A stretch of DNA of 64,000 bases from an uncultured Bacilli bacterium (GTDB lineage Bacteria > Bacillota_I > Bacilli_A > RFN20 > CAG-288): NCBI GenBank assembly GCA_944371605.1, contig CALVXU010000009.1:56866-120865 (forward strand). The letters run 5' to 3'. Below the pieces are notes generated by a model. That model saw only the letters and a list, made by a program, of their open reading frames with translations, was not told the origin of the DNA and ran no database searches. The position numbers were made by a program, and so were the translations under genes. Of this stretch, positions 11,274-42,529 are shown one piece after another. The first letter of the stretch is position 1. Each line of letters begins with the position of its first letter.

Positions 11274-12074
11274 TCAAACTACATAATCAGAAATTTTCAT
11301 CAAGTATAAACCAACAAAATTATTAGATTGAACACCCATTTCAAAAATCAATCCATCAACCATAAAATATCGTTCATCATTATGATAAACGATTTCATTA
11401 TCTTTTATTTCACAATAAGTTTTCGAATTATATGAAAAAGAATCATTCATATATATAGCTATCCAAATTAATATATCATCTGTTCCAAAAGGTTGACGAT
11501 TTATCAAAATGTCCCAATCTAATTTTGATAAAGTATCTTTAAAAAGGGAAAATCTAAAAAAGACATTATAAGTATCATTTTGATAATCGTAATAATTAGT
11601 GTCTAAAAACTCAACATAATTATCTTTCTTTACAGGCCAGGTTCTTATCATTTTTCCTGAGCGCTTAAAATAGAAAGGAGCATCTCTAAACTCTTTTATA
11701 TATCCACTTTTATCTATTTTTATCTGAATCTGACGTTTTGAAATATATAGTTCATCGTCATCAACATTTAAATGGTTTTTTATATTTTCAAACGAATAGT
11801 TCTCATAAAAAGTATGAATATTATCCGTTGTGTATAGCTTAGTATTATAAATATATTTCTGATTATAAATATATTCACCAGTTGGAACTCCCACACCAAC
11901 TCCAATTGAACAAATTAAAATAGCAATTACCAAGAACCAGTATTTTAATTTGACATCTTTATTTTTCTTAATACAATGTTCTACATAAACAAATTGGTAA
12001 AGCAAAAAGGCAATTATCAATAAAGCGATTGTTATTGATATTAATATAAGCCAAAAATCCATTGTGCCAGCCAT
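11274..12074 (-). CDS. hypothetical membrane protein (2 N-terminal TM segments)
   Basis: 266-aa ORF with GAGGTG RBS, 16 nt after the 795-aa gene. Confidence 0.8.
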   Translation of the reverse strand: MAGTMDFWLILISITIALLIIAFLLYQFVYVEHCIKKNKDVKLKYWFLVIAILICSIGVGVGVPTGEYIYNQKYIYNTKLYTTDNIHTFYENYSFENIKNHLNVDDDELYISKRQIQIKIDKSGYIKEFRDAPFYFKRSGKMIRTWPVKKDNYVEFLDTNYYDYQNDTYNVFFRFSLFKDTLSKLDWDILINRQPFGTDDILIWIAIYMNDSFSYNSKTYCEIKDNEIVYHNDERYFMVDGLIFEMGVQSNNFVGLYLMKISDYVV

Positions 12075-14563: not shown

Positions 14564-15429
14564 GGCAAATATGTCATTCTAGTTAAATGTTGGTATGACA
14601 TAGTCTATGGTCTAATGGAAAAAGAGTTCTAAAATATAAATCGACATATTTACCACAATTTTTGTACTCGGTAGTTGAACATGCTCTATTAATCCATCTT
14701 AGCTTTTCATGGCTATCTTTTTGTGTGAACTTTATTCATATTTATTCTTTCAAGTTAATGGCATCAAAGGCGTGTTCATAACCTCTTAAATTATCATGAG
14801 CTAACGTTGAATCATCAGCAATAATATCTATCCATGCAGCATTTAATTCTTTAGCCTTTGGATGACCTTCACCAATATAATTAACTCTTATATGATGGCT
14901 ATCATATATGACTATTGCTAAAAGTGATTGCTGATACCTAACTCCTCTTTTTCGAACATTATTATCTTGTTTTAGTGATTTAGGAAACAATAATCATAGT
15001 CTAATCAATTTGAACTTTATGAGATAATTTAGGTAATTTTAAATGATTATGTAGATAGTCTAATAATAAATATCGATATCTAAAAGCAGTTTTGATATAT
15101 ACTCGATTAGAAATAGCTGAAGCATATAAAGTGCTACTTGTTTTTAAGTCCTTAATCATATTCTAAATAATATGGCAACCAAGCCTACCATGATAATAGA
15201 TACTATTGATAGAACTCATAAAAGTTTTTTCACAATGAGAACATTTATATCTTTGTTTATTATTTACTTTTCCATACTTGATATAATCTTTGCTTTTGCA
15301 ATGAGGACAAAGTTTTATTTTTGGATTATAAATAGATTTGATTATTGAATATTCATAAAAGTCTTTTATTTAGCAAAAATATTATATAACTTCATATATC
15401 CTTACCAAAACTGGAATGACATAAATTCA
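14564..15429 (-). mobile_element. degenerate IS1595-family insertion sequence (transposase pseudogene)
   Basis: Manual translation: CPHCKSKDYIKYGKVNNKQRYKCSHCEKTF zinc ribbon, IKTAFRYRYLL, LSHKVQID*, RKRGV, then the 82-aa ORF 14742-14990; imperfect terminal IRs 14564-14584 and 15409-15429 (16/21 match). Confidence 0.8.
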
Positions 15430-15839
15430 TTTTATTACATTATCACTTTATAGGCCAACTTGCATGTGATAAGTGTTCTTGACGACTATCAAATTTATTC
15501 TTTTAAATTTTGAATTAAATTTAGAAGACTGGATATTACCATTAACATCAGTCTTAACCTAAAGACGATTAAATTTAAAGCTTTGCTTCGTTAATCGGTT
15601 TCAAGCTACTTTATAGGATTAGATAGTGCATAAACTTCTTGCCTTATATTCTACAATTGCAACTTTAATCATACTTAAATATTACTACTTCTATTTTTTA
15701 ATCAAGAGGGTCAAAAAGACTATATTTAAATATATATTTAAATAAAAGATCAATTTTATTTCCACGTAAAATTAAGTCATATTCTTTCGCTAACAAGATT
15801 ATTAACAGTGAATTTAATATCCTAAAAATTATTTTGACC

Positions 15840-19567: not shown

Positions 19568-21502
19568 TTATTTTTTCTTCTTTTCCCAACTCATACTGTT
19601 ACCGCTAGTAACGATATAAGCAGGGTCTTTTTCAGCGACTTTTTGAATCGTCATCTCTTCATGATAATCAGCAGAAACAACTTTGATATGATTAGCACCA
19701 TCATGTAAGTCAAGCTTAAATTTGAAGATTTTATCTCCCTTCAAAGTAGCGACTTTCTTATCATCATGATAGAGAGTGACCTCCTTCAAAGTGGAATAAA
19801 CTTTAATCTCAGTTCTCTTTTCATGACGATTGATGTATCTAGTAGAGCAGAGATGCAAGAATGGTTCATCACTCCAATACGCTTTATAAAGATAGAAAGC
19901 ATCTTTCTTAATCTTACGATCAAAAGTGACTAAACCTTTATGATTCTTTCCAGGATCACCGCCTTGATCACGGCCATCAGATCCGAAATCGAACATATTC
20001 CAAACATGAGTCGCCCATAAATATGGATGTTTCTTAAAGCATTCTAAGAGATGTTCATGATAAATGGCTTGATATTCTTCGGTATTATCAAAACGTTTAG
20101 GTTTAGGTGAATGCAAATTAGGCATACCTTCAGCACCATATTCTGAATAGCCTAAGCATCTGTTCGGATAGAGCAAATGGAAGAAAGAAATCCATAAACC
20201 ATTGAGGAAGAAGAATGGTACATACCATCCTAAATAAAGGTTCCAAGAGACCACATCAGTGATATGAGCAGTCTTATTAAAAGGTGTAGCAACAGCATAG
20301 CATGCTAAAGTTGTGAGTCTAGAATGATCCATTTGATGTATCAAATCATTTAATTGATGATTCAAAGCTAACATCTCTTTCTTATGTTTAGGAACCATAG
20401 TGATCTCATTAGAAACACCCCAAACAACAATTGAGGGATGATTATATTGTTGATAAACTAATTCCTTCATTTGAGAGATGGCATTTTCATCACCATTGAC
20501 TAAATGTTGAGAAATATAAGGGATTTCAGCCCAAACAATCATGCCATATTTATCACATAAATCATAGAAGTAATCATCATGTTGATAATGAGCTAAACGG
20601 ATGGTGTTAGCACCTATTTCACGAATCATATCCATATCTTCATCGTGATCCTCTTTAGAGAGAGCGTTACCTTTATGAAGTCTATCTTGATGTCTAGACA
20701 CACCATGTAAAGGATATGATTTACCATTTAAGAAAAAGCCTTTTTTAGGATCGATAGAGAAAGTTCTCACACCAAAATTGGTGCTGATTTCATCTAAAAC
20801 AGTGCCATCTTCAGACAATAGTTTAGCGACTGCCTTATAAAGATAAGGATCCTTTAATCCGTTCCATAAATGAACTTTCGAGATAGTTAATTCTTTATCA
20901 TTTTCACCTTCGATAACTGTCTCACCCTTATCATCTAAAATGCTGATAACAACTTTTTTCTCGCTCTTAGTATAGGCAGTGACTGTGACCAAGGCATCTT
21001 CGCCATTCACTTTGGTATCAACTTTGATTCCTTTAGCGCCAAAGAAGTCTAAATCGAAATGCTCTTTATTTACACGAATCAAATTGACATCTCTATAAAT
21101 ACCACCATAAAAAGTAAAATCAGCTTTTTGTGGATATACATAATCATTGACACTATTATCAACTAAAACTTTTAAAATATTTTCCTCACCGATTTTAAAA
21201 GCATCAGTCAAATCGCAACGAAAAGTAGAATAGCCGCCATCATGTTTTCCGACTAGAGTTCCATTCAAATAAACTTCCGCAGAAGAATTGACTCCCTTAA
21301 ACTCCGCATACAAAACTTCATCATCTGCTAACTCAGGGCAAGTGAATTTATGTTGATAAACAGCTTGACCACGATAATAATCACCGCCTCCATCTTGACC
21401 ATCTTCATTGTTCCAAGTATGAGGTAAATCAATATGGAACAGTTCTTTCGTTTTCGGATCCTCAAATGTCCAATCACGATTGATGTTAGTTATTGTTCTC
21501 AT
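19568..21502 (-). CDS. GH2 glycoside hydrolase, likely cytoplasmic beta-glucuronidase
   Basis: LHGVSRHQD, IRLAHYQH, WGVSNEI acid/base, SEYGAEG nucleophile, KNHKG (NxKG); start at 21502 behind AAGGAG; no signal peptide. Confidence 0.88.
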   Translation of the reverse strand: MRTITNINRDWTFEDPKTKELFHIDLPHTWNNEDGQDGGGDYYRGQAVYQHKFTCPELADDEVLYAEFKGVNSSAEVYLNGTLVGKHDGGYSTFRCDLTDAFKIGEENILKVLVDNSVNDYVYPQKADFTFYGGIYRDVNLIRVNKEHFDLDFFGAKGIKVDTKVNGEDALVTVTAYTKSEKKVVISILDDKGETVIEGENDKELTISKVHLWNGLKDPYLYKAVAKLLSEDGTVLDEISTNFGVRTFSIDPKKGFFLNGKSYPLHGVSRHQDRLHKGNALSKEDHDEDMDMIREIGANTIRLAHYQHDDYFYDLCDKYGMIVWAEIPYISQHLVNGDENAISQMKELVYQQYNHPSIVVWGVSNEITMVPKHKKEMLALNHQLNDLIHQMDHSRLTTLACYAVATPFNKTAHITDVVSWNLYLGWYVPFFFLNGLWISFFHLLYPNRCLGYSEYGAEGMPNLHSPKPKRFDNTEEYQAIYHEHLLECFKKHPYLWATHVWNMFDFGSDGRDQGGDPGKNHKGLVTFDRKIKKDAFYLYKAYWSDEPFLHLCSTRYINRHEKRTEIKVYSTLKEVTLYHDDKKVATLKGDKIFKFKLDLHDGANHIKVVSADYHEEMTIQKVAEKDPAYIVTSGNSMSWEKKKK

Positions 21503-21544: not shown

Positions 21545-21558
21545 TGTAAGCGATTGCA
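21545..21558. promoter_or_regulatory. cre-like (CcpA/LacI) site upstream of GH2
   Basis: TGTAAGCGATTGCA versus TGWNANCGNTNWCA, one mismatch. Confidence 0.55.
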
Positions 21559-21581
21559 ATAAAAGCTTAATTCTTTTGCGT
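21554..21581 (-). promoter_or_regulatory. candidate activator site, GH2 promoter
   Basis: ACGCAA-N16-TTGCAA, 23 nt before TAAAAT. Confidence 0.5.
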
Positions 21582-21584
21582 TTT

Positions 21585-22374
21585 TTATCTATTTTTTAAC
21601 TTATTCTTTTTTGAAAGACCGATAATCTTTCTGTAGTCCCTGTAAAAAGTCGAGTAATTTTCAAAGCCTAATTGTTCAGCTACTAGTGTCTTTTTCATCC
21701 CGTTCATAATCATGCGATGAGCGATAATAATCTTTTTTGAACGCACATATTGCATGATAGGTGTATTCATATATTTTTTGAAACAATTCGATAGATATGA
21801 TTTAGAAAAATAAAAATGCTCACATAAAGATTCCAAAGTGATATTTTCATTGAGATGTTTATCAATATAGTCGATGACTTTTTTGATGATATCGTTCTGC
21901 CTAGTCGTCGTGAAAGACTTCTGTCCTTCTTTGGATAGATAAATCAAAAACTTTATCAACTCCCCTATAAAAAGAGCATATATCTCTTCCTCACTTTTAA
22001 ACTGGCTATAAAAATCATCTAAAGTAGAAAAATCTAAATGATATTTCATCATATCAGAATAAAAAGAAGAGCAGTTCTTGATGAAATCGACTAAAAATCC
22101 AGGCAAAATTTTATCTGGAAATTTTAAAACATATCTCTCATAAGGCTGGCTTAAATTGCAAACAGCAAAATGGAATTTTCCGCTAGGAACAATGATGACA
22201 TCCCCTGGAGATAGCTTACGACTCTCCGATTCAACATGATAATCCACATCACCAGACACAAAAAAAAATGACTTCATTAAAATAATGCATGTGACGTTCA
22301 AAATTTTCGCTAGGTGTCGTGCTGTTATCTAGTTTATGAGCAAAATCAATACTTTTATAATTGAAATTAAACAT
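21585..22374 (-). pseudogene. AraC-family regulator split by a +1 frameshift in a T9 run
   Basis: Cupin N-terminus MFNF...RHMHYFNEVIFF joins VSGDVDYHVE if one T of the run at 22260-22268 is removed (262 aa); C-terminal double HTH intact. Confidence 0.85.
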
Positions 22375-22418
22375 ATATAGTATAATAACAAAGATAGTAT
22401 AAAGAGATTCTGGTTGAA

Positions 22419-22474
22419 TTGCAACCAAAACAAGAAAAAATTGCAATTTAATTGGATAGCATATCATTTATAAT
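22419..22474 (+). promoter_or_regulatory. uxuA promoter with candidate activator site
   Basis: TTGCAA-N16-TTGCAA, then 22 nt, then TATAAT (22469-74); no consensus -35. Confidence 0.6.
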
Positions 22475-22510: not shown

Positions 22511-23563
22511 ATGAAACTTACGTTTCGCTGGTATGGTGAGACAGACAGCATACCATTAGACTACATCCGTGAAATTCCTGGAATCACTGGTGTTGTCACC
22601 GCTCTTTATGATGCTAAACCCGGTCAACTATGGAAAGAAGAATCATTAAAGAGACAAAAAGAACTATGTGCCGCTAAAGGATTAGAGATGGAAGTCATCG
22701 AATCCATCCCTGTTTCTGAAGACATCAAATTAGGCAAACCTAATCGTGATGAATTAATAGCTAATTACGCAAAAAATATCGAATTAGTCGCCAAATATGG
22801 TGTTAAATGCGTATGTTATAATTTCATGCCTGTTTTCGATTGGCTAAGAACAACTATGCATTATGTCAATCCAGATGGTTCTAATTCTCTCGCTTATATC
22901 TATGAAGACTTCTTAAAAGTCGACCCTAAACACTTGCATCTACCTGGTTGGGATGAGAGCTATACCGAAGATGAATTGCAAGCTTTGCTAGCAGAATACA
23001 AAAATATTTCTCATCAACAATTGTTTGAAAATCTCGTTTATTTCTTAGAAAGAATCATCCCTGTTTGTGAAAGATGTGATGTTAATATGGCTATCCATCC
23101 AGATGATCCGCCGTGGGATGTCTTCTCACTTCCTCGCATCATCTCTAATGAAGAAGATTTAGATAAACTCTTCAAAGCTGTACCTAGCACGCGTAATGGT
23201 CTGACTCTCTGCACAGGTTCCTTCGGAGCTTCTAGAAATAATGACTTAGTCCATATGGCTGCTAAATATGCTAAAGAAGGACGTATCCACTTCGCACATT
23301 TAAGAAATGTCAAGTACTTAGGTGATCATGATTCATTTGTCGAAGCTGGTCATCTCAGTAAGATGGGCTCCTTAAATATTGCTAAAATCGTTGAAGCTTT
23401 AGTTGAAAACGGATTTGATGGTTATGTCAGACCAGATCACGGAAGAAATATCTTCGGTGAAGATGCTAAACCTGGATACGGATTATATGATCGTGCTTTA
23501 GGAGCATGTTATATCAATGGTTTATTTGAAATGATCGAATATAAAAAAGGAGAAAATAAATAA
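22511..23563 (+). CDS. uxuA: mannonate dehydratase
   Basis: TFRWYG, VIESIPVSEDIK, CYNFMPVFDW, AIHPDDPP, RPDHGR, PGYGLYDRALG. Confidence 0.97.
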   Translation: MKLTFRWYGETDSIPLDYIREIPGITGVVTALYDAKPGQLWKEESLKRQKELCAAKGLEMEVIESIPVSEDIKLGKPNRDELIANYAKNIELVAKYGVKCVCYNFMPVFDWLRTTMHYVNPDGSNSLAYIYEDFLKVDPKHLHLPGWDESYTEDELQALLAEYKNISHQQLFENLVYFLERIIPVCERCDVNMAIHPDDPPWDVFSLPRIISNEEDLDKLFKAVPSTRNGLTLCTGSFGASRNNDLVHMAAKYAKEGRIHFAHLRNVKYLGDHDSFVEAGHLSKMGSLNIAKIVEALVENGFDGYVRPDHGRNIFGEDAKPGYGLYDRALGACYINGLFEMIEYKKGENK

Positions 23564-24423
23564 TGAAGTTTGAAGATTTACCTATCGGTGTTAAACTCAC
23601 TGACAAAGTTGTCGCTATCACTGGTGCTGGCGGTGTTATCTGCGGCGCTTTGAGCAAAGCTATCGCTGCTGCCGGTGCCAAGGTTGCTGTTCTTGATTTA
23701 AAGCTTGAATCTGCGATGAAAGTCGTCGAAGAGATTCGTGCAGATGGCGGAATCGCTTATGGCTATGCTGCTAATGTTTTAGAGTTAGAGAGCTTAAAGA
23801 AAGCCCATGATGATATCAATAAAGATTTAGGCAAAGTTGATATCCTCATCAATGGTGCTGGCGGTAATAATCCTCGTGCTAATACTGATAAAGAGTATTA
23901 TGAAGTCGGAGATATCGATGATCCGGAATTAAAAACCTTCTTCAACCTTGATTCAAGCGGTGTCTCTTTCGTTTTCAATTTAAATTTCTTAGGTACACTT
24001 TTGCCTAGCCAAGTCTTCGCCAAAGATATGTTAGGAAGAGAAGGCTGCTCTATCCTGAACATTTCTTCGATGAACGCTTTCACTCCTTTAACCAAAATCC
24101 CGGCATATTCTGGTGCTAAAGCTGCCGTCAGTAACTTTACTAAATGGTTAGCTGTTCACTTTTCTAAAGTCAATATCCGTGTCAACGCTATCGCACCTGG
24201 ATTCTTAGCCACCGCTCAAAACAAGAGCTTGTTATTCAATCCAGATGGTACTCCAACAGCTCGTACTGGCAAGATTATCAACGCTACACCTATGGGCAGA
24301 TTCGGTGAACCAGATGAACTCATCGGTGCTACACTCTTCTTGATTTCTGACAAAGCTAGTTCCTTCATCACCGGTGTCGTTCTACCTATCGATGGTGGCT
24401 TCTCTAGCTACTCTGGAGTTTAA
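23563..24423 (+). CDS. uxuB: SDR-family D-mannonate oxidoreductase (fructuronate reductase)
   Basis: ITGAGG, NGAGGN, NISSM, YSGAK, IAPGF; between uxuA and uxaC. Confidence 0.85.
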   Translation: MKFEDLPIGVKLTDKVVAITGAGGVICGALSKAIAAAGAKVAVLDLKLESAMKVVEEIRADGGIAYGYAANVLELESLKKAHDDINKDLGKVDILINGAGGNNPRANTDKEYYEVGDIDDPELKTFFNLDSSGVSFVFNLNFLGTLLPSQVFAKDMLGREGCSILNISSMNAFTPLTKIPAYSGAKAAVSNFTKWLAVHFSKVNIRVNAIAPGFLATAQNKSLLFNPDGTPTARTGKIINATPMGRFGEPDELIGATLFLISDKASSFITGVVLPIDGGFSSYSGV

Positions 24424-24431
24424 TCAATAAA

Positions 24432-25853
24432 ATGAAAAGCTTTAATGATAAAGACTTCATGCTCCAAAATGAAGTCGGACAAAAACTTTATCATGAAGTG
24501 GCTGAATCTCTTCCGATTTTTGATTTCCACTGTCATCTTCCTATCGAAGAGATTTATTCTGATAGAACCTATGATTCCATCACCGATTTATGGCTAGTAG
24601 AAAAGAAAAATGGCAAAGCGTTCGGTGACCATTATAAATGGCGCTTGATGCGTGCAAATGGTGTTGATGAAGCTTACATCACCGGTGATAAAGATAAAAA
24701 AGAAAAATTTGTAAAATGGGCAGATACTTTGCAAAACGCTTTCTTAAATCCTCTCTATCATTGGTCACATTTAGAGCTGAAGCAATACTTCGATATCGAT
24801 GAGCCTTTGACTAGTGACAACGCTGAAAAAATCTACGATTTATTAAATGAAAAACTAAAATCTCTTTCAGTTAGAAAGCTCTTAGTAAAAGCGAATGTTC
24901 ACACCTTATACACCACTGATGATCCTCTTTCTGATTTGCATTATCATCAATTATTAAGACAAGATAAGTCTTTCAAAGTAGTCGTCAATCCTGCCTTTAG
25001 AGCAGATAATTTCATCAAGATTTATGCTCCTAACTTCTCAGAAGTCATCACAGCCTTAGGAAAAGTCACTAATAAAGAGATCACAAGTATCAAAGACTTA
25101 GAAGATGCTTTAGATGAAAGATTAGCTTATTTTGCTGAAAATGGTTGTCTTGCTTTCGATGTTTCATTCGAAGACTTCCTCTATCAAAAAGCTGATATCG
25201 ATGAAGTTGATCATATCTTCAAAAATGCTTTGAACCATGAAACATTGACCAAAAGCGATTTAGCTAAATATTATGCTGAAATCTTGCACTTCTTCGGAAA
25301 AGCATGTGCCAAATATCACTTCGTCATGCAGTATCATCTCAAAGCTTTGAGAAATCTCAATTCCCGTGCCTTTGAAACTTTAGGAGCCGACTCTGGTTAT
25401 GACGCTATCTCTGACACAGACCTCATCCATGATTTGACTCATTGCTTAGACGATCTAGAAAAAGAAAACTCTTTATATAAGACTATCATCTATACACTTG
25501 ACCCATCAGATTATGAACCATTGTTAGCGATGTGTGGTTCTTTCCAAAAGGCGCCTTATAGAGGCAAGATTCAATTCGGTGCAGCTTGGTGGTTCAACGA
25601 TCACCGCGATGGCATGGAAAAACAAATGAGAGCTTTAGCAAATTATAGTTTATTGCCTCACTTTGTCGGTATGTTAACTGATTCTAGAAGCTTCTTGAGT
25701 TATGCTAGACACGATTACTTTAGGCGTCTATTATGTAATTTGATCGGCAAGACTGTTGAAGATGGTGAATATCCTTTAAATGAGGAATTCTTAAAGAAAA
25801 TGGTCAAGAAGATCAGTTTTGATAACGCTGTCGAATTCTTTACAAAAGATTAA
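24432..25853 (+). CDS. uxaC: uronate isomerase
   Basis: DFHCHL, DHYKWRLMRANG, NPLYHWSHLEL, GAAWWFND, GMLTDSRSFLSY. Confidence 0.97.
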   Translation: MKSFNDKDFMLQNEVGQKLYHEVAESLPIFDFHCHLPIEEIYSDRTYDSITDLWLVEKKNGKAFGDHYKWRLMRANGVDEAYITGDKDKKEKFVKWADTLQNAFLNPLYHWSHLELKQYFDIDEPLTSDNAEKIYDLLNEKLKSLSVRKLLVKANVHTLYTTDDPLSDLHYHQLLRQDKSFKVVVNPAFRADNFIKIYAPNFSEVITALGKVTNKEITSIKDLEDALDERLAYFAENGCLAFDVSFEDFLYQKADIDEVDHIFKNALNHETLTKSDLAKYYAEILHFFGKACAKYHFVMQYHLKALRNLNSRAFETLGADSGYDAISDTDLIHDLTHCLDDLEKENSLYKTIIYTLDPSDYEPLLAMCGSFQKAPYRGKIQFGAAWWFNDHRDGMEKQMRALANYSLLPHFVGMLTDSRSFLSYARHDYFRRLLCNLIGKTVEDGEYPLNEEFLKKMVKKISFDNAVEFFTKD

Positions 25854-25873
25854 TATAGAAGGTTACTAAATAT

Positions 25874-26476
25874 ATGGATATCATTGAAAAAATTCACGAA
25901 TTAAAAGTTGTTCCTGTTGTCGTTTTAAATTCTGTCGATGAAGTTGAAGATAAAATCGGTGGTTTAGTCGAAGGAAAATTACCTGTTGCTGAAATCACTT
26001 TCCGCACTGCTTGTGCTGCTGAAGCTATCAAAAAATCAATCGAATTATATCCCGATGCCCTCATCGGTGCTGGCACTGTCATCAACGCTAAACAATGTGA
26101 AGCAGCCATCAAAGCCGGCGCTAAATTCATCGTTTCTCCAGGTTTTGCTGATGATGTCGATTTGGTTTGTAAAGCTCATGACATTCCTTATCTTCCTGGT
26201 ATTGCTACCCCTACTGAAATCATTCACGCTATCAGTTTAGGTCATAAGATCATCAAGTTCTTCCCAGCTAGCATCTATGGCGGATTAAAAGCTATCAAGA
26301 GTTTAGCTGCTGTTTTCCCGGATGTAAAATTCTTGCCGACTGGTGGTATCAATGAGGATACTTATCTCGAGTACTTAGCATTCGATAAAATCATCGCTGT
26401 CGGTGGTTCCTGGATGACTAAAGGTAGCCATGAAGAAATCGTCGCTAAATGCTTGCAGATTCATGAAGGTAAATAA
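25874..26476 (+). CDS. eda: KDPG/KHG aldolase
   Basis: AEITFRT, IGAGTV, FIVSPG, KFFPA, PTGGI. Confidence 0.95.
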   Translation: MDIIEKIHELKVVPVVVLNSVDEVEDKIGGLVEGKLPVAEITFRTACAAEAIKKSIELYPDALIGAGTVINAKQCEAAIKAGAKFIVSPGFADDVDLVCKAHDIPYLPGIATPTEIIHAISLGHKIIKFFPASIYGGLKAIKSLAAVFPDVKFLPTGGINEDTYLEYLAFDKIIAVGGSWMTKGSHEEIVAKCLQIHEGK

Positions 26477-26504
26477 TATTTTTTAAGAAAAAGAGGTATA
26501 TATT

Positions 26505-27530
26505 ATGGCTAAAATTGTCACTATGGGTGAAATCATGCTTCGTCTTTCCACTCATGGATTCTTACGTTTTGTTCAATCTGATAGTTTCGACGCTTGCTAC
26601 GGTGGTGGTGAAGCTAACGTCGCGTTATCTTTATCCAACTATGGTCATAAAACTTATTTTGTCACTAAGCTTCCTAAGAATGATATCGGTCAAAGCGCCA
26701 TCAACTCTTTACGCGAGTTTGGTGTCAATACCGACTATATCGTCAGAGGTGGTGACAGAATCGGTATCTATTATTTAGAGACTGGTGATGCTATGCGTCC
26801 TTCAAAAGTCATCTATGATCGTTCTAATTCTGCTATCGCTTTAGCTGAAGCTGATGAATTCGATTTCGATAAAATCTTTGAAGGCAAAGATTGGTTCCAT
26901 TTCACTGGCATCACTCCAGCTATCTCTGAGAAAGCTGAAAAATTAACTGTCTTAGCTTGCCAAGCTGCTAAAAAGCATGGCTTGACAGTTTCTTGCGATT
27001 TAAACTTCCGTAAAAAATTGTGGACTAGTGAAAAAGCTATCCAAGTCATGACATCTTTAATGCCATATGTCGATGTCTTGATCGGTAATGAAGAAGATTG
27101 TGAGAAATGCTTAGGCTTTAAAGCTGAGAAGAGCGATGTCACTAAAGGTCAACTCAATCTTAGCGGCTATCAAGATGTGTTTATGAAACTCAAAGAAAAA
27201 TTTGGTTTCAAATATATGGCTACTTCTCTAAGAGAATCTTACTCTGCTTCTGATAACGGTTGGTCAGCTCTCATCTATGATGGAAAAGAATTCTATCACT
27301 CTCGTGAGTACCAAATCCGTCTTGTCGATCGCGTCGGTGGAGGCGATTCTTTCGCAGGTGGTCTCATCCATGGTTTGTTAGCCTACAATGGCGACGAAAA
27401 GAAAGCCTTGGAATTTGCGGTTGCAGCTTCTGCTTTAAAACAAACTATCCCTGGCGATGTCAATCACGTCAGCACTGAAGAAGTTGAAACATTGATGAAT
27501 GGTGATGCTTCTGGAAGAGTCCAAAGATAA
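26505..27530 (+). CDS. kdgK: 2-keto-3-deoxygluconate kinase (PfkB family)
   Basis: GEIMLRLS, GGGEANVA, DLNFRKKLW, DRVGGGDSFAGG. Confidence 0.95.
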   Translation: MAKIVTMGEIMLRLSTHGFLRFVQSDSFDACYGGGEANVALSLSNYGHKTYFVTKLPKNDIGQSAINSLREFGVNTDYIVRGGDRIGIYYLETGDAMRPSKVIYDRSNSAIALAEADEFDFDKIFEGKDWFHFTGITPAISEKAEKLTVLACQAAKKHGLTVSCDLNFRKKLWTSEKAIQVMTSLMPYVDVLIGNEEDCEKCLGFKAEKSDVTKGQLNLSGYQDVFMKLKEKFGFKYMATSLRESYSASDNGWSALIYDGKEFYHSREYQIRLVDRVGGGDSFAGGLIHGLLAYNGDEKKALEFAVAASALKQTIPGDVNHVSTEEVETLMNGDASGRVQR

Positions 27531-36059: not shown

Positions 36060-36087
36060 TTGCAAAAGCAATTATTTTTCATTGCAT
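36060..36087 (-). promoter_or_regulatory. candidate activator site, surface operon promoter
   Basis: ATGCAA-N16-TTGCAA, 22 nt before TTTAAT. Confidence 0.45.
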
Positions 36088-41422: not shown

Positions 41423-42529
41423 CTAGTCGTTGACGAGGATTATGTCCTCATCCTTTCCTATTTTATCGTTAGACACCACAGTTTTACTTCCAACGATAGC
41501 ATAATTAACTTTGACATCTTTTTTAATCACTGCTCCAGGCATGATGAATGAATTGACAATTTCAGCACCTGGTTCAATGACAGCTTCATTCGAGACTATC
41601 GAATGAATGACTTTTCCTTTTACTACTGCGCCTTGATTGATGATAGAATCTTTGACTTCAGCACTAGGAGAAATATATTGTGGACGTGAACAAGTATCTG
41701 CTGAATAGATTTTAAAGTCTTTAGAGAAAAGATGGAGCAAACAATCAGAATCTAATAAATCCATATTGGATTCCCATAAAGATTTTATAGTTCCGACATC
41801 TTTCCAATAGCCTGTAAATGGATAGGCATATAAACTTCTACCGTTATTCAATAAATAAGGAAGAATATTTTTGCCGAAATCATGATCAGTTTTTTCAGCA
41901 TTATGATCTTTGATAAGAGCATCTCTTAAGAGCTTATAAGTGAAGATGTAAATTCCCATTGAGGCCAGTGTAGATTTAGGATTCTTAGGTTTTTCTTGGA
42001 ACTCTTGAATCTTGTGTTCTTTATCAGCGACGATGATACCAAAACGCGATGCCTCTTCAAGCGGAACATCAATACAAGCGATAGTGACATCTGCACCATT
42101 TTTCTTGTGGAACTTAAGCATATCAGAATAATCCATCTTATAGATGTGATCACCAGAAAGAATGACAACATATTCGCAGTGCGTCTTATCTAACCAATCG
42201 ATGTTTTGATAAATAGCATCTGCAGTGCCTAAGTACCAACTGGCACCATCAGGTGTTTCTCTTGGTGGCAAAATTGAAGTCAATGCACCAGTACCATTTA
42301 ATCCCCAACTGGCACCAGTACCGATATAATTGTTTAAAACTGTTGATTCATATTGTGTAGCGACACCAACACAATTTATACCGGAATTTGCGACATTCGA
42401 CAAAACGAAGTCGATGATACGATACTTCCCACCAAAAAAAACAGCTGGCTTAGCAATTTTGCTAGTCAACGATTTAAGGCGGGTTCCTCTACCACCGGCT
42501 AAAATCATGGCAACCATCTCTTCTTTCAT
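41423..42529 (-). CDS. glgC: glucose-1-phosphate adenylyltransferase
   Basis: ILAGGRGTRL, AKPAVFFGGKYRIIDF, LSGDHIYKMDY, YWKDVGT; start 42529 behind AGGAGG. Confidence 0.97.
   Translation of the reverse strand: MKEEMVAMILAGGRGTRLKSLTSKIAKPAVFFGGKYRIIDFVLSNVANSGINCVGVATQYESTVLNNYIGTGASWGLNGTGALTSILPPRETPDGASWYLGTADAIYQNIDWLDKTHCEYVVILSGDHIYKMDYSDMLKFHKKNGADVTIACIDVPLEEASRFGIIVADKEHKIQEFQEKPKNPKSTLASMGIYIFTYKLLRDALIKDHNAEKTDHDFGKNILPYLLNNGRSLYAYPFTGYWKDVGTIKSLWESNMDLLDSDCLLHLFSKDFKIYSADTCSRPQYISPSAEVKDSIINQGAVVKGKVIHSIVSNEAVIEPGAEIVNSFIMPGAVIKKDVKVNYAIVGSKTVVSNDKIGKDEDIILVND

Follow-up and report, generated by a model that had tools for sequence, protein, structure and literature searches.

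A One-Base Frame Break at a Homopolymer in the AraC-Family Regulator Gene of a Glucuronide Locus from an Uncultured Bacilli Bacterium

Described homopolymer systems and the interrupted gene

Several described systems bear on a gene whose reading frame is broken at a homopolymer. In the pseudogenes and loss-of-function alleles that replication slippage has produced in particular strains, a change of a single A/T unit breaks an otherwise intact gene; polymerase infidelity partly rescues some of them, as in the catalogued cases with nine A or nine T (9A/9T; Baranov et al. 2005, PMC1088944). Programmed slippage of the mxiE or Thermus dnaX type involves a run of at least about nine A/T at a frame junction (PMC1088944), together with a two-frame arrangement that is conserved among orthologues. 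The mxiE gene of Shigella flexneri is itself a member of the AraC family, with a T run at the junction of two overlapping frames; its two-frame form is the normal, conserved one, and the frame is restored by the gain of one base. The contingency loci of Neisseria, Haemophilus, Campylobacter, and Mycoplasma carry a homopolymer, such as poly-G or poly-A, early in the coding region, one unit of which decides between ON and OFF; such a tract is polymorphic in length, with recurring ON and OFF forms, and is maintained in related lineages. As for the protein, AraC/XylS-family regulators of sugar-acid use combine an N-terminal cupin sensor with a C-terminal double helix-turn-helix (HTH), adjoin a catabolic operon, and act at direct-repeat sites with a period of about 22 bp that abut the -35 region.

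The gene described here lies on the minus strand at 21585–22374 of the window, i.e., the whole 64,000-nucleotide stretch analysed (C9:56866-120865), which belongs to a metagenome-assembled genome (MAG) of 1.43 Mb in 33 contigs, roughly 90% complete and with 34% G+C. Its coding strand reads ...CAC ATG CAT TAT TTT AAT GAA GTC ATT... ahead of the homopolymer and GAA GTC ATT TTT TTT TGT GTC TGG TGA across it. The run consists of exactly nine T's (A9 at 22260–22268 on the plus strand), that is, the Ile-Phe-Phe codons and a surplus T. The T9 frame opens at the ATG at 22374, comprises 41 codons, and ends at a TGA (22251–22249) three codons past the tract, leaving the gene in two pieces. The 5′ fragment (22249–22374, minus strand) encodes the N-terminal part of the cupin domain and ends with ...HMHYFNEVIFF followed by the out-of-frame CVW*. 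The 3′ fragment (21585–22277, minus strand) is a 230-aa ORF beginning with MKSFFFVSGDVDYH... and encodes the remaining cupin domain and both HTH motifs. It starts at a fortuitous ATG at 22277 just upstream of the tract (ATG AAG TCA TTT TTT TTT GTG), before which no Shine-Dalgarno motif is visible in the sequence. With one T fewer (T8), the frame continues for 262 aa up to the stop at 21585; both T9 and T10 are out of frame. The source record splits the gene into P0134, a 72-aa ORF with an upstream ATG as its start, and P0130, the 230-aa ORF; these are best taken as a single AraC-family gene that has been interrupted.

The 262-aa read-through protein exceeds the Pfam cut-offs for Cupin_2 (33.6 bits; cut-off 27.2), AraC_binding (30.8 bits; cut-off 21.1), HTH_AraC (52.7 bits; cut-off 26.6), and HTH_18 (51.3 bits; cut-off 33.6). 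Its DNA-binding domain, with the two HTH motifs characteristic of AraC/XylS members, spans residues 170–254. The N-terminal cupin, or AraC-type ligand-binding, domain is likewise present; it is contiguous in the T8 reading only and is cut at residue 38 in the T9 assembly, where the gene lacks the single intact ORF of a functional member. In the T8 form, the run supplies the codons ATT TTT TTT (Ile-Phe-Phe) of a β-strand of the cupin sensor domain. The domain architecture is thus that of the sugar-acid regulators. A preliminary description of this DNA had placed the tract at the same coordinates, with the same length and a stop after about 40 codons, and had proposed that T8 would yield an intact 262-aa cupin and HTH protein; all of this is correct. 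Two other views of the gene were rejected. A compensating second indel near the tract does not occur in the alignment with L008, where the 5′ portion of the gene has a single indel and the stop comes three codons past the tract. A 290–293-aa form from an upstream ATG at 22467 is not regarded as the true protein, as its extension overlaps the promoter/operator region and the proteins of the sister species and of G014 begin with MFNF....

The tract among relatives

A protein search with the read-through protein returned one cluster at 90% identity or more, whose 15 members comprise 12 distinct full-length sequences, one chimeric fragment, and the window's own two pieces. All of the full-length members read ...EVIFFVSGDVDYH... 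at the position concerned. The read-through protein is 97–99% identical to the full-length proteins from conspecific contigs, and the frame break is not a chance pattern of ORFs. Within the cluster, no contig other than the window's, in its NCBI copy, has yielded the split products P0130 and P0134.

A DNA census of the tract covered 15 conspecific records from ENA, Logan, and an NCBI MAG, which are 98.1–99.1% identical over the gene. The tract is T8 (ATT TTT TTT G) and the gene intact in every one of them, so that no OFF tract length was found in other strains among these records. In the sister species, at 85% nucleotide identity, the corresponding codons are ATC TTT TTT (T6) in 13 of 13 records; two more distant congeners have CTC TTC TTT and CTC TAC TTC, with no homopolymer tract, and the orthologue of G014 is intact at 263 aa. 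All orthologues examined are single in-frame ORFs. T8 arose in this species through a synonymous C-to-T change (ATC to ATT), and T9 is private to this one MAG. Because neither the sister species nor the congeners maintain a tract, the homopolymer is nothing more than ordinary Ile-Phe-Phe codons in an AT-rich genome, not conserved beyond the species. T9 is a singleton variant, with no near-identical strain to confirm it.

A second homopolymer in the same gene varies among strains. An A6 run in the last codons (21606–21611, minus strand) is A7 in three independent conspecific records, a form that only alters the C-terminal tail. The A6/A7 difference gives the alternative tails ...SKKNKLKNR and ...SKKEQVKK, and a third tail, ...SKKNKK, also occurs among strains.

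Origin of the ninth T

The reliability of the assembly can be gauged from its other homopolymers. Genome-wide, A/T runs of lengths 5 to 9 number 7870, 2978, 1024, 127, and 4, respectively; the counts drop 8-fold from length 7 to 8 and 32-fold from 8 to 9, a steepness that fits selection against slippage-prone runs of nine or more. Nearly half of the A/T8 runs (61 of 127) lie within intact long ORFs, and a T9 run at C1:1480-1488 is in frame in a tyrosine-recombinase gene; another nine-base run, the A9 at C2:93737-93745, is intergenic. Runs of A15 and A16 (C1:6524-6538 and C3:16209-16224), which would be extremely slippage-prone, are in frame in long ORFs and encode Lys5-6; a further A16 run, at C28:13215-13230, is within a short 67-codon open frame only. 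The A8 run of glgC at 42434–42441 of the window is likewise real and, as had been stated previously, keeps its frame, which is open over 392 codons.

Alignment of positions 11553–51408 of the window (~40 kb) to conspecific contigs at about 99% identity gave a similar picture. The indels are all intergenic, mostly single-base changes in A/T runs, except for T9 at 22260 and the A6/A7 difference near the 3′ end of this gene, and T9 is the sole frame-breaking coding indel. Because indels avoid coding sequence, unlike random consensus errors, the pattern looks filtered by selection, which speaks for an accurate assembly and for frequent, genuine variation in homopolymer length. Pervasive assembly error, which the preliminary description had likewise discounted, is therefore rejected in view of the 61 A/T8 runs in intact ORFs and the indels that spare coding sequence. 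A hypermutator state through loss of mismatch repair is rejected as well; mutS and mutL are both intact, and hence no special hypermutability is expected.

A genome-wide ORF-fusion screen for homopolymer frameshifts yielded 33–46 candidates. Nearly all were dismissed on inspection as ordinary junctions between genes or as 5′ untranslated regions, e.g., ParA/ParB, GatA/GatB, and the stretches upstream of upp, apt, and ftsK. The survivors were the AraC-family gene, a G8 lipoprotein gene, and a MerR-family gene.

The T9 break is very probably an unprogrammed, private +1 change of the T8 run, be it real or an artefact; in other words, it is an ordinary private mutation or an assembly slip, not an evolved on/off switch. 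Of the two, we lean toward a real and recent replication-slippage mutation or a sample-level polymorphism, a reading to which we give an even chance. It is favoured over an artefact because homopolymer length polymorphism is common and selection-filtered in the species and because the assembly handles other long runs correctly. The genuine gene decay in the MerR-family gene of this species, described below, also speaks for it. If so, the ninth T would be present in the DNA and not merely in the assembly, replication slippage in the strain or population behind the MAG having changed T8 to T9. The regulator would then be truncated after 41 codons and, provided that it is an activator of the three repeat-bearing promoters described below, induction of the glucuronide/hexuronate locus at these promoters would be lost or strongly reduced. 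Any such loss would be recent, because the genes of the regulon are intact and of the same length as in relatives.

A real T9 allele would probably be leaky. Nine A/T is the length at which RNA polymerase slippage and selection against runs become evident in many bacteria (PMC1088944), which upholds the earlier remark that a nine-base run is long enough for slippage by this enzyme. Given this threshold and the 32-fold drop in run counts in the genome itself, slippage on U9 would be likely to produce some U8 transcripts and, from these, some full-length protein. In this respect, the gene resembles the catalogued 9A/9T alleles: a single-unit A/T change breaks an intact gene, and the length of nine makes partial rescue plausible (PMC1088944). 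Unlike those alleles, the lesion is found in one MAG only, and both the variant and its rescue are putative. If T9 is real, homopolymer-driven gene loss would gain one more case: a strain of a small-genome gut Firmicute that is naturally regulator-deficient or hypomorphic in its use of glucuronides/hexuronates.

The alternative is that the organism has T8 and that the consensus gained one T through low coverage, library polymerase stutter, or polishing. Homopolymers of 9 nt are the commonest sites of indel error in short-read and HiFi assemblies, and the chance of a consensus error at such a run speaks against a real mutation, as do the singleton status of T9 and the intact mutS and mutL. T9 differs from all conspecific records by exactly one homopolymer unit, and no other frame-breaking indel turned up in the comparison of about 40 kb. 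In addition, the source genome is a roughly 90%-complete MAG in 33 contigs, the split products are on record solely from the NCBI copy of its contig, and the AraC-family gene has no other decay, its regulon being intact. An artefact is thus a serious possibility, to which we assign somewhat less than an even chance; it stays close behind a real mutation because of the lack of further decay and the singleton status of T9. Its weakness lies in the 61 A/T8 runs and the in-frame T9, A15, and A16 runs that the same assembly carries in open frames, and in the avoidance of coding sequence by indels, which is expected of real polymorphisms but not of random errors. If T9 is an artefact, the correct annotation would be a single 262-aa AraC-family gene in place of the public 72-aa and 230-aa ORFs. 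There is little gain beyond such annotation hygiene to be had from the T9 break.

An evolved contingency locus, in which T8/T9 slippage reversibly toggles the regulator and the glucuronide regulon, was the preferred reading of the preliminary description and is improbable. The tract does lie early in a coding region, where one unit toggles the frame as in the known contingency loci; the regulator has a plausible multi-promoter regulon; and the genome seems to use simple-sequence switches elsewhere, in the form of G8/C8 tracts after lipoboxes and before -10 boxes. However, all 15 conspecific records have T8, the ON form, and the OFF form is seen in this MAG only, so that the recurring ON and OFF lengths of a contingency locus are missing among strains; a comparison of tract length across strains had been suggested as a check, and no variation emerged among these records. 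Moreover, the sister species breaks the tract with ATC and the congeners lack it altogether, so that it is not maintained by selection. T8 is also short for an A/T contingency tract, with mismatch repair intact, and the likely switches of this genome are poly-G/C, not poly-A/T. The gene is a cytoplasmic regulator, unlike the surface or restriction-modification genes of contingency loci. The earlier account had further looked to relatives lacking the tract and to additional decay of this copy as signs against a switch. Relatives without the tract do exist, but the copy itself has not decayed further: comparison with relatives revealed neither a second lesion nor a signal of relaxed selection in the gene.

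Marginally less probable still is a young stochastic switch, in which T9 would turn an activator off and U9 slippage would keep a low basal level of it. Three promoters, namely those of the GH2 glucuronidase, the uxu/kdg pathway, and the surface GH3 operon, would then be off, and the result would be ON/LOW bistable glucuronide foraging in a gut commensal, mxiE-like but reversible at the DNA level.

Programmed recoding, with the T9 two-frame form as the normal one, expressed by transcriptional slippage or +1 ribosomal frameshifting, is the weakest explanation and very unlikely: nine T's at a frame junction are a known slippage site, and mxiE encodes an AraC-family activator made in this way (PMC1088944), but the out-of-frame arrangement is here a private deviation, every orthologue examined being one in-frame ORF, no stimulatory element is evident, and restoration of the frame would need the loss of one U or the gain of two, unlike the gain of one in mxiE. 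The T9 break therefore fails the defining tests of mxiE-type slippage genes as well as those of contingency loci, and it is an already-known kind of event.

The glucuronide locus, a candidate operator, and other tracts

The regulator gene is flanked by the uxuA-uxaC-eda-kdgK operon and a GH2 glycosidase gene. The former is transcribed divergently (22511–27530, plus strand) and encodes UxuA, an SDR oxidoreductase, UxaC, KDPG aldolase, and a PfkB sugar kinase; all five genes are intact, and their lengths from uxuA to the PfkB gene equal those in conspecific L029. The glycosidase gene, of the β-glucuronidase type, lies downstream of the regulator (19568–21502, minus strand) and is intact, with the 644-aa start as called in other assemblies and the length that it has in a conspecific MAG.

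An operator-like direct repeat, TTGCAATT-N14-TTGCAATT, occupies 22417–22446 in the divergent promoter region between the regulator gene and uxuA. It also fits the pattern GCAA-N16-TTGCAA, on both strands (22419–22446). A second such repeat is located between the stop codon of the regulator and the GH2 gene (21554–21579, minus strand) and a third upstream of a surface/GH3 operon (36060–36085, minus strand). Altogether, the pattern has 4 matches at 3 promoters, where 0.23 would be expected; all of 100 shuffles gave fewer than 4. Conspecifics and the sister species have the first two sites at matching positions, and the third is kept in the conspecific loci that cover it (L032–L034). Among the other congeners, G014 has the repeat in the spacer between the regulator gene and uxuA, and the more distant G005, G013, and G015 have it at one or two sites each. 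GCAA-N16-TTGCAA is thus a candidate operator of the AraC-type regulator.

In the direction of uxuA, a TATAAT box follows 22 nt past the end of the repeat; all three promoters have such a repeat about 22 nt upstream of a -10 box, as activator-dependent AraC-type promoters typically do. A promoter-like site for the regulator gene, TTGCAA-17-TATACT, is present at 22396–22424 on the minus strand as a consensus match only, and the -35 element of this predicted promoter is one half-site of the repeat. The arrangement suggests an AraC-type activator site with autoregulation, in which both binding and the sign of regulation are predicted from the layout. As in the known sugar-acid regulators, the gene adjoins a catabolic operon that it probably controls, and the direct repeat, with its period of about 22 bp, directly borders the -35 region; unlike the characterised members, this protein has only a putative effector, DNA site, and sign of regulation. 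Because the conserved operator-like repeat is found at three promoters, the regulator plausibly controls the whole glucuronide/hexuronate locus. The preliminary description had assigned it this role, which is plausible for that reason, and had let the switch toggle the whole regulon, which is unsupported.

No Shine-Dalgarno motif is visible at the start codon of the regulator (22372–22401). A second TATACT box lies just 4 nt before its ATG (TATACTATATATG), and because of this box the regulator mRNA may begin with a very short leader or with none.

The candidate operator linking three promoters and a set of poly-G/C8 tracts are more useful by-products of the analysis than the T9 break. Of the G/C runs in the genome, ten are exactly 8 long and one is 9, with none of 7 and only three of 6. 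These longer runs, all outside the window, are located at C3:8679-8686, C4:18025-18032, C14:42847-42854, C15:25032-25040, C15:44443-44450, C17:16668-16675, C18:15505-15512, C19:73803-73810, C30:119039-119046, C30:143774-143781, and C30:153446-153453. Several G/C tracts are directly upstream of TAAAAT or TATAAT boxes. Four are just past the lipobox cysteine of lipoprotein genes, and three of these four are in frame; the tract at C30:143774 is out of frame at G8, where G9 would be in frame. As candidates for phase variation, these poly-G/C8 tracts are far superior to the T9 run.

The MerR-family gene from the ORF-fusion screen is split at an A7 run (C24:55339-55345). Its full length is about 258 aa, and the protein aligns end to end with 260-aa homologues. 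In conspecific assemblies, the gene carries differing lesions, and only one copy is intact (259 aa). It is decaying across the species and, as the lesions differ among conspecifics, genuine pseudogenisation does take place there.

Two further differences were noted in the comparison with a conspecific MAG. The intergenic stretch at 15031–15061 is rearranged or variable relative to this MAG, and at 15721–15732 the window has a 12-bp tandem duplication (TATATTTAAATA twice), of which the MAG has one copy.
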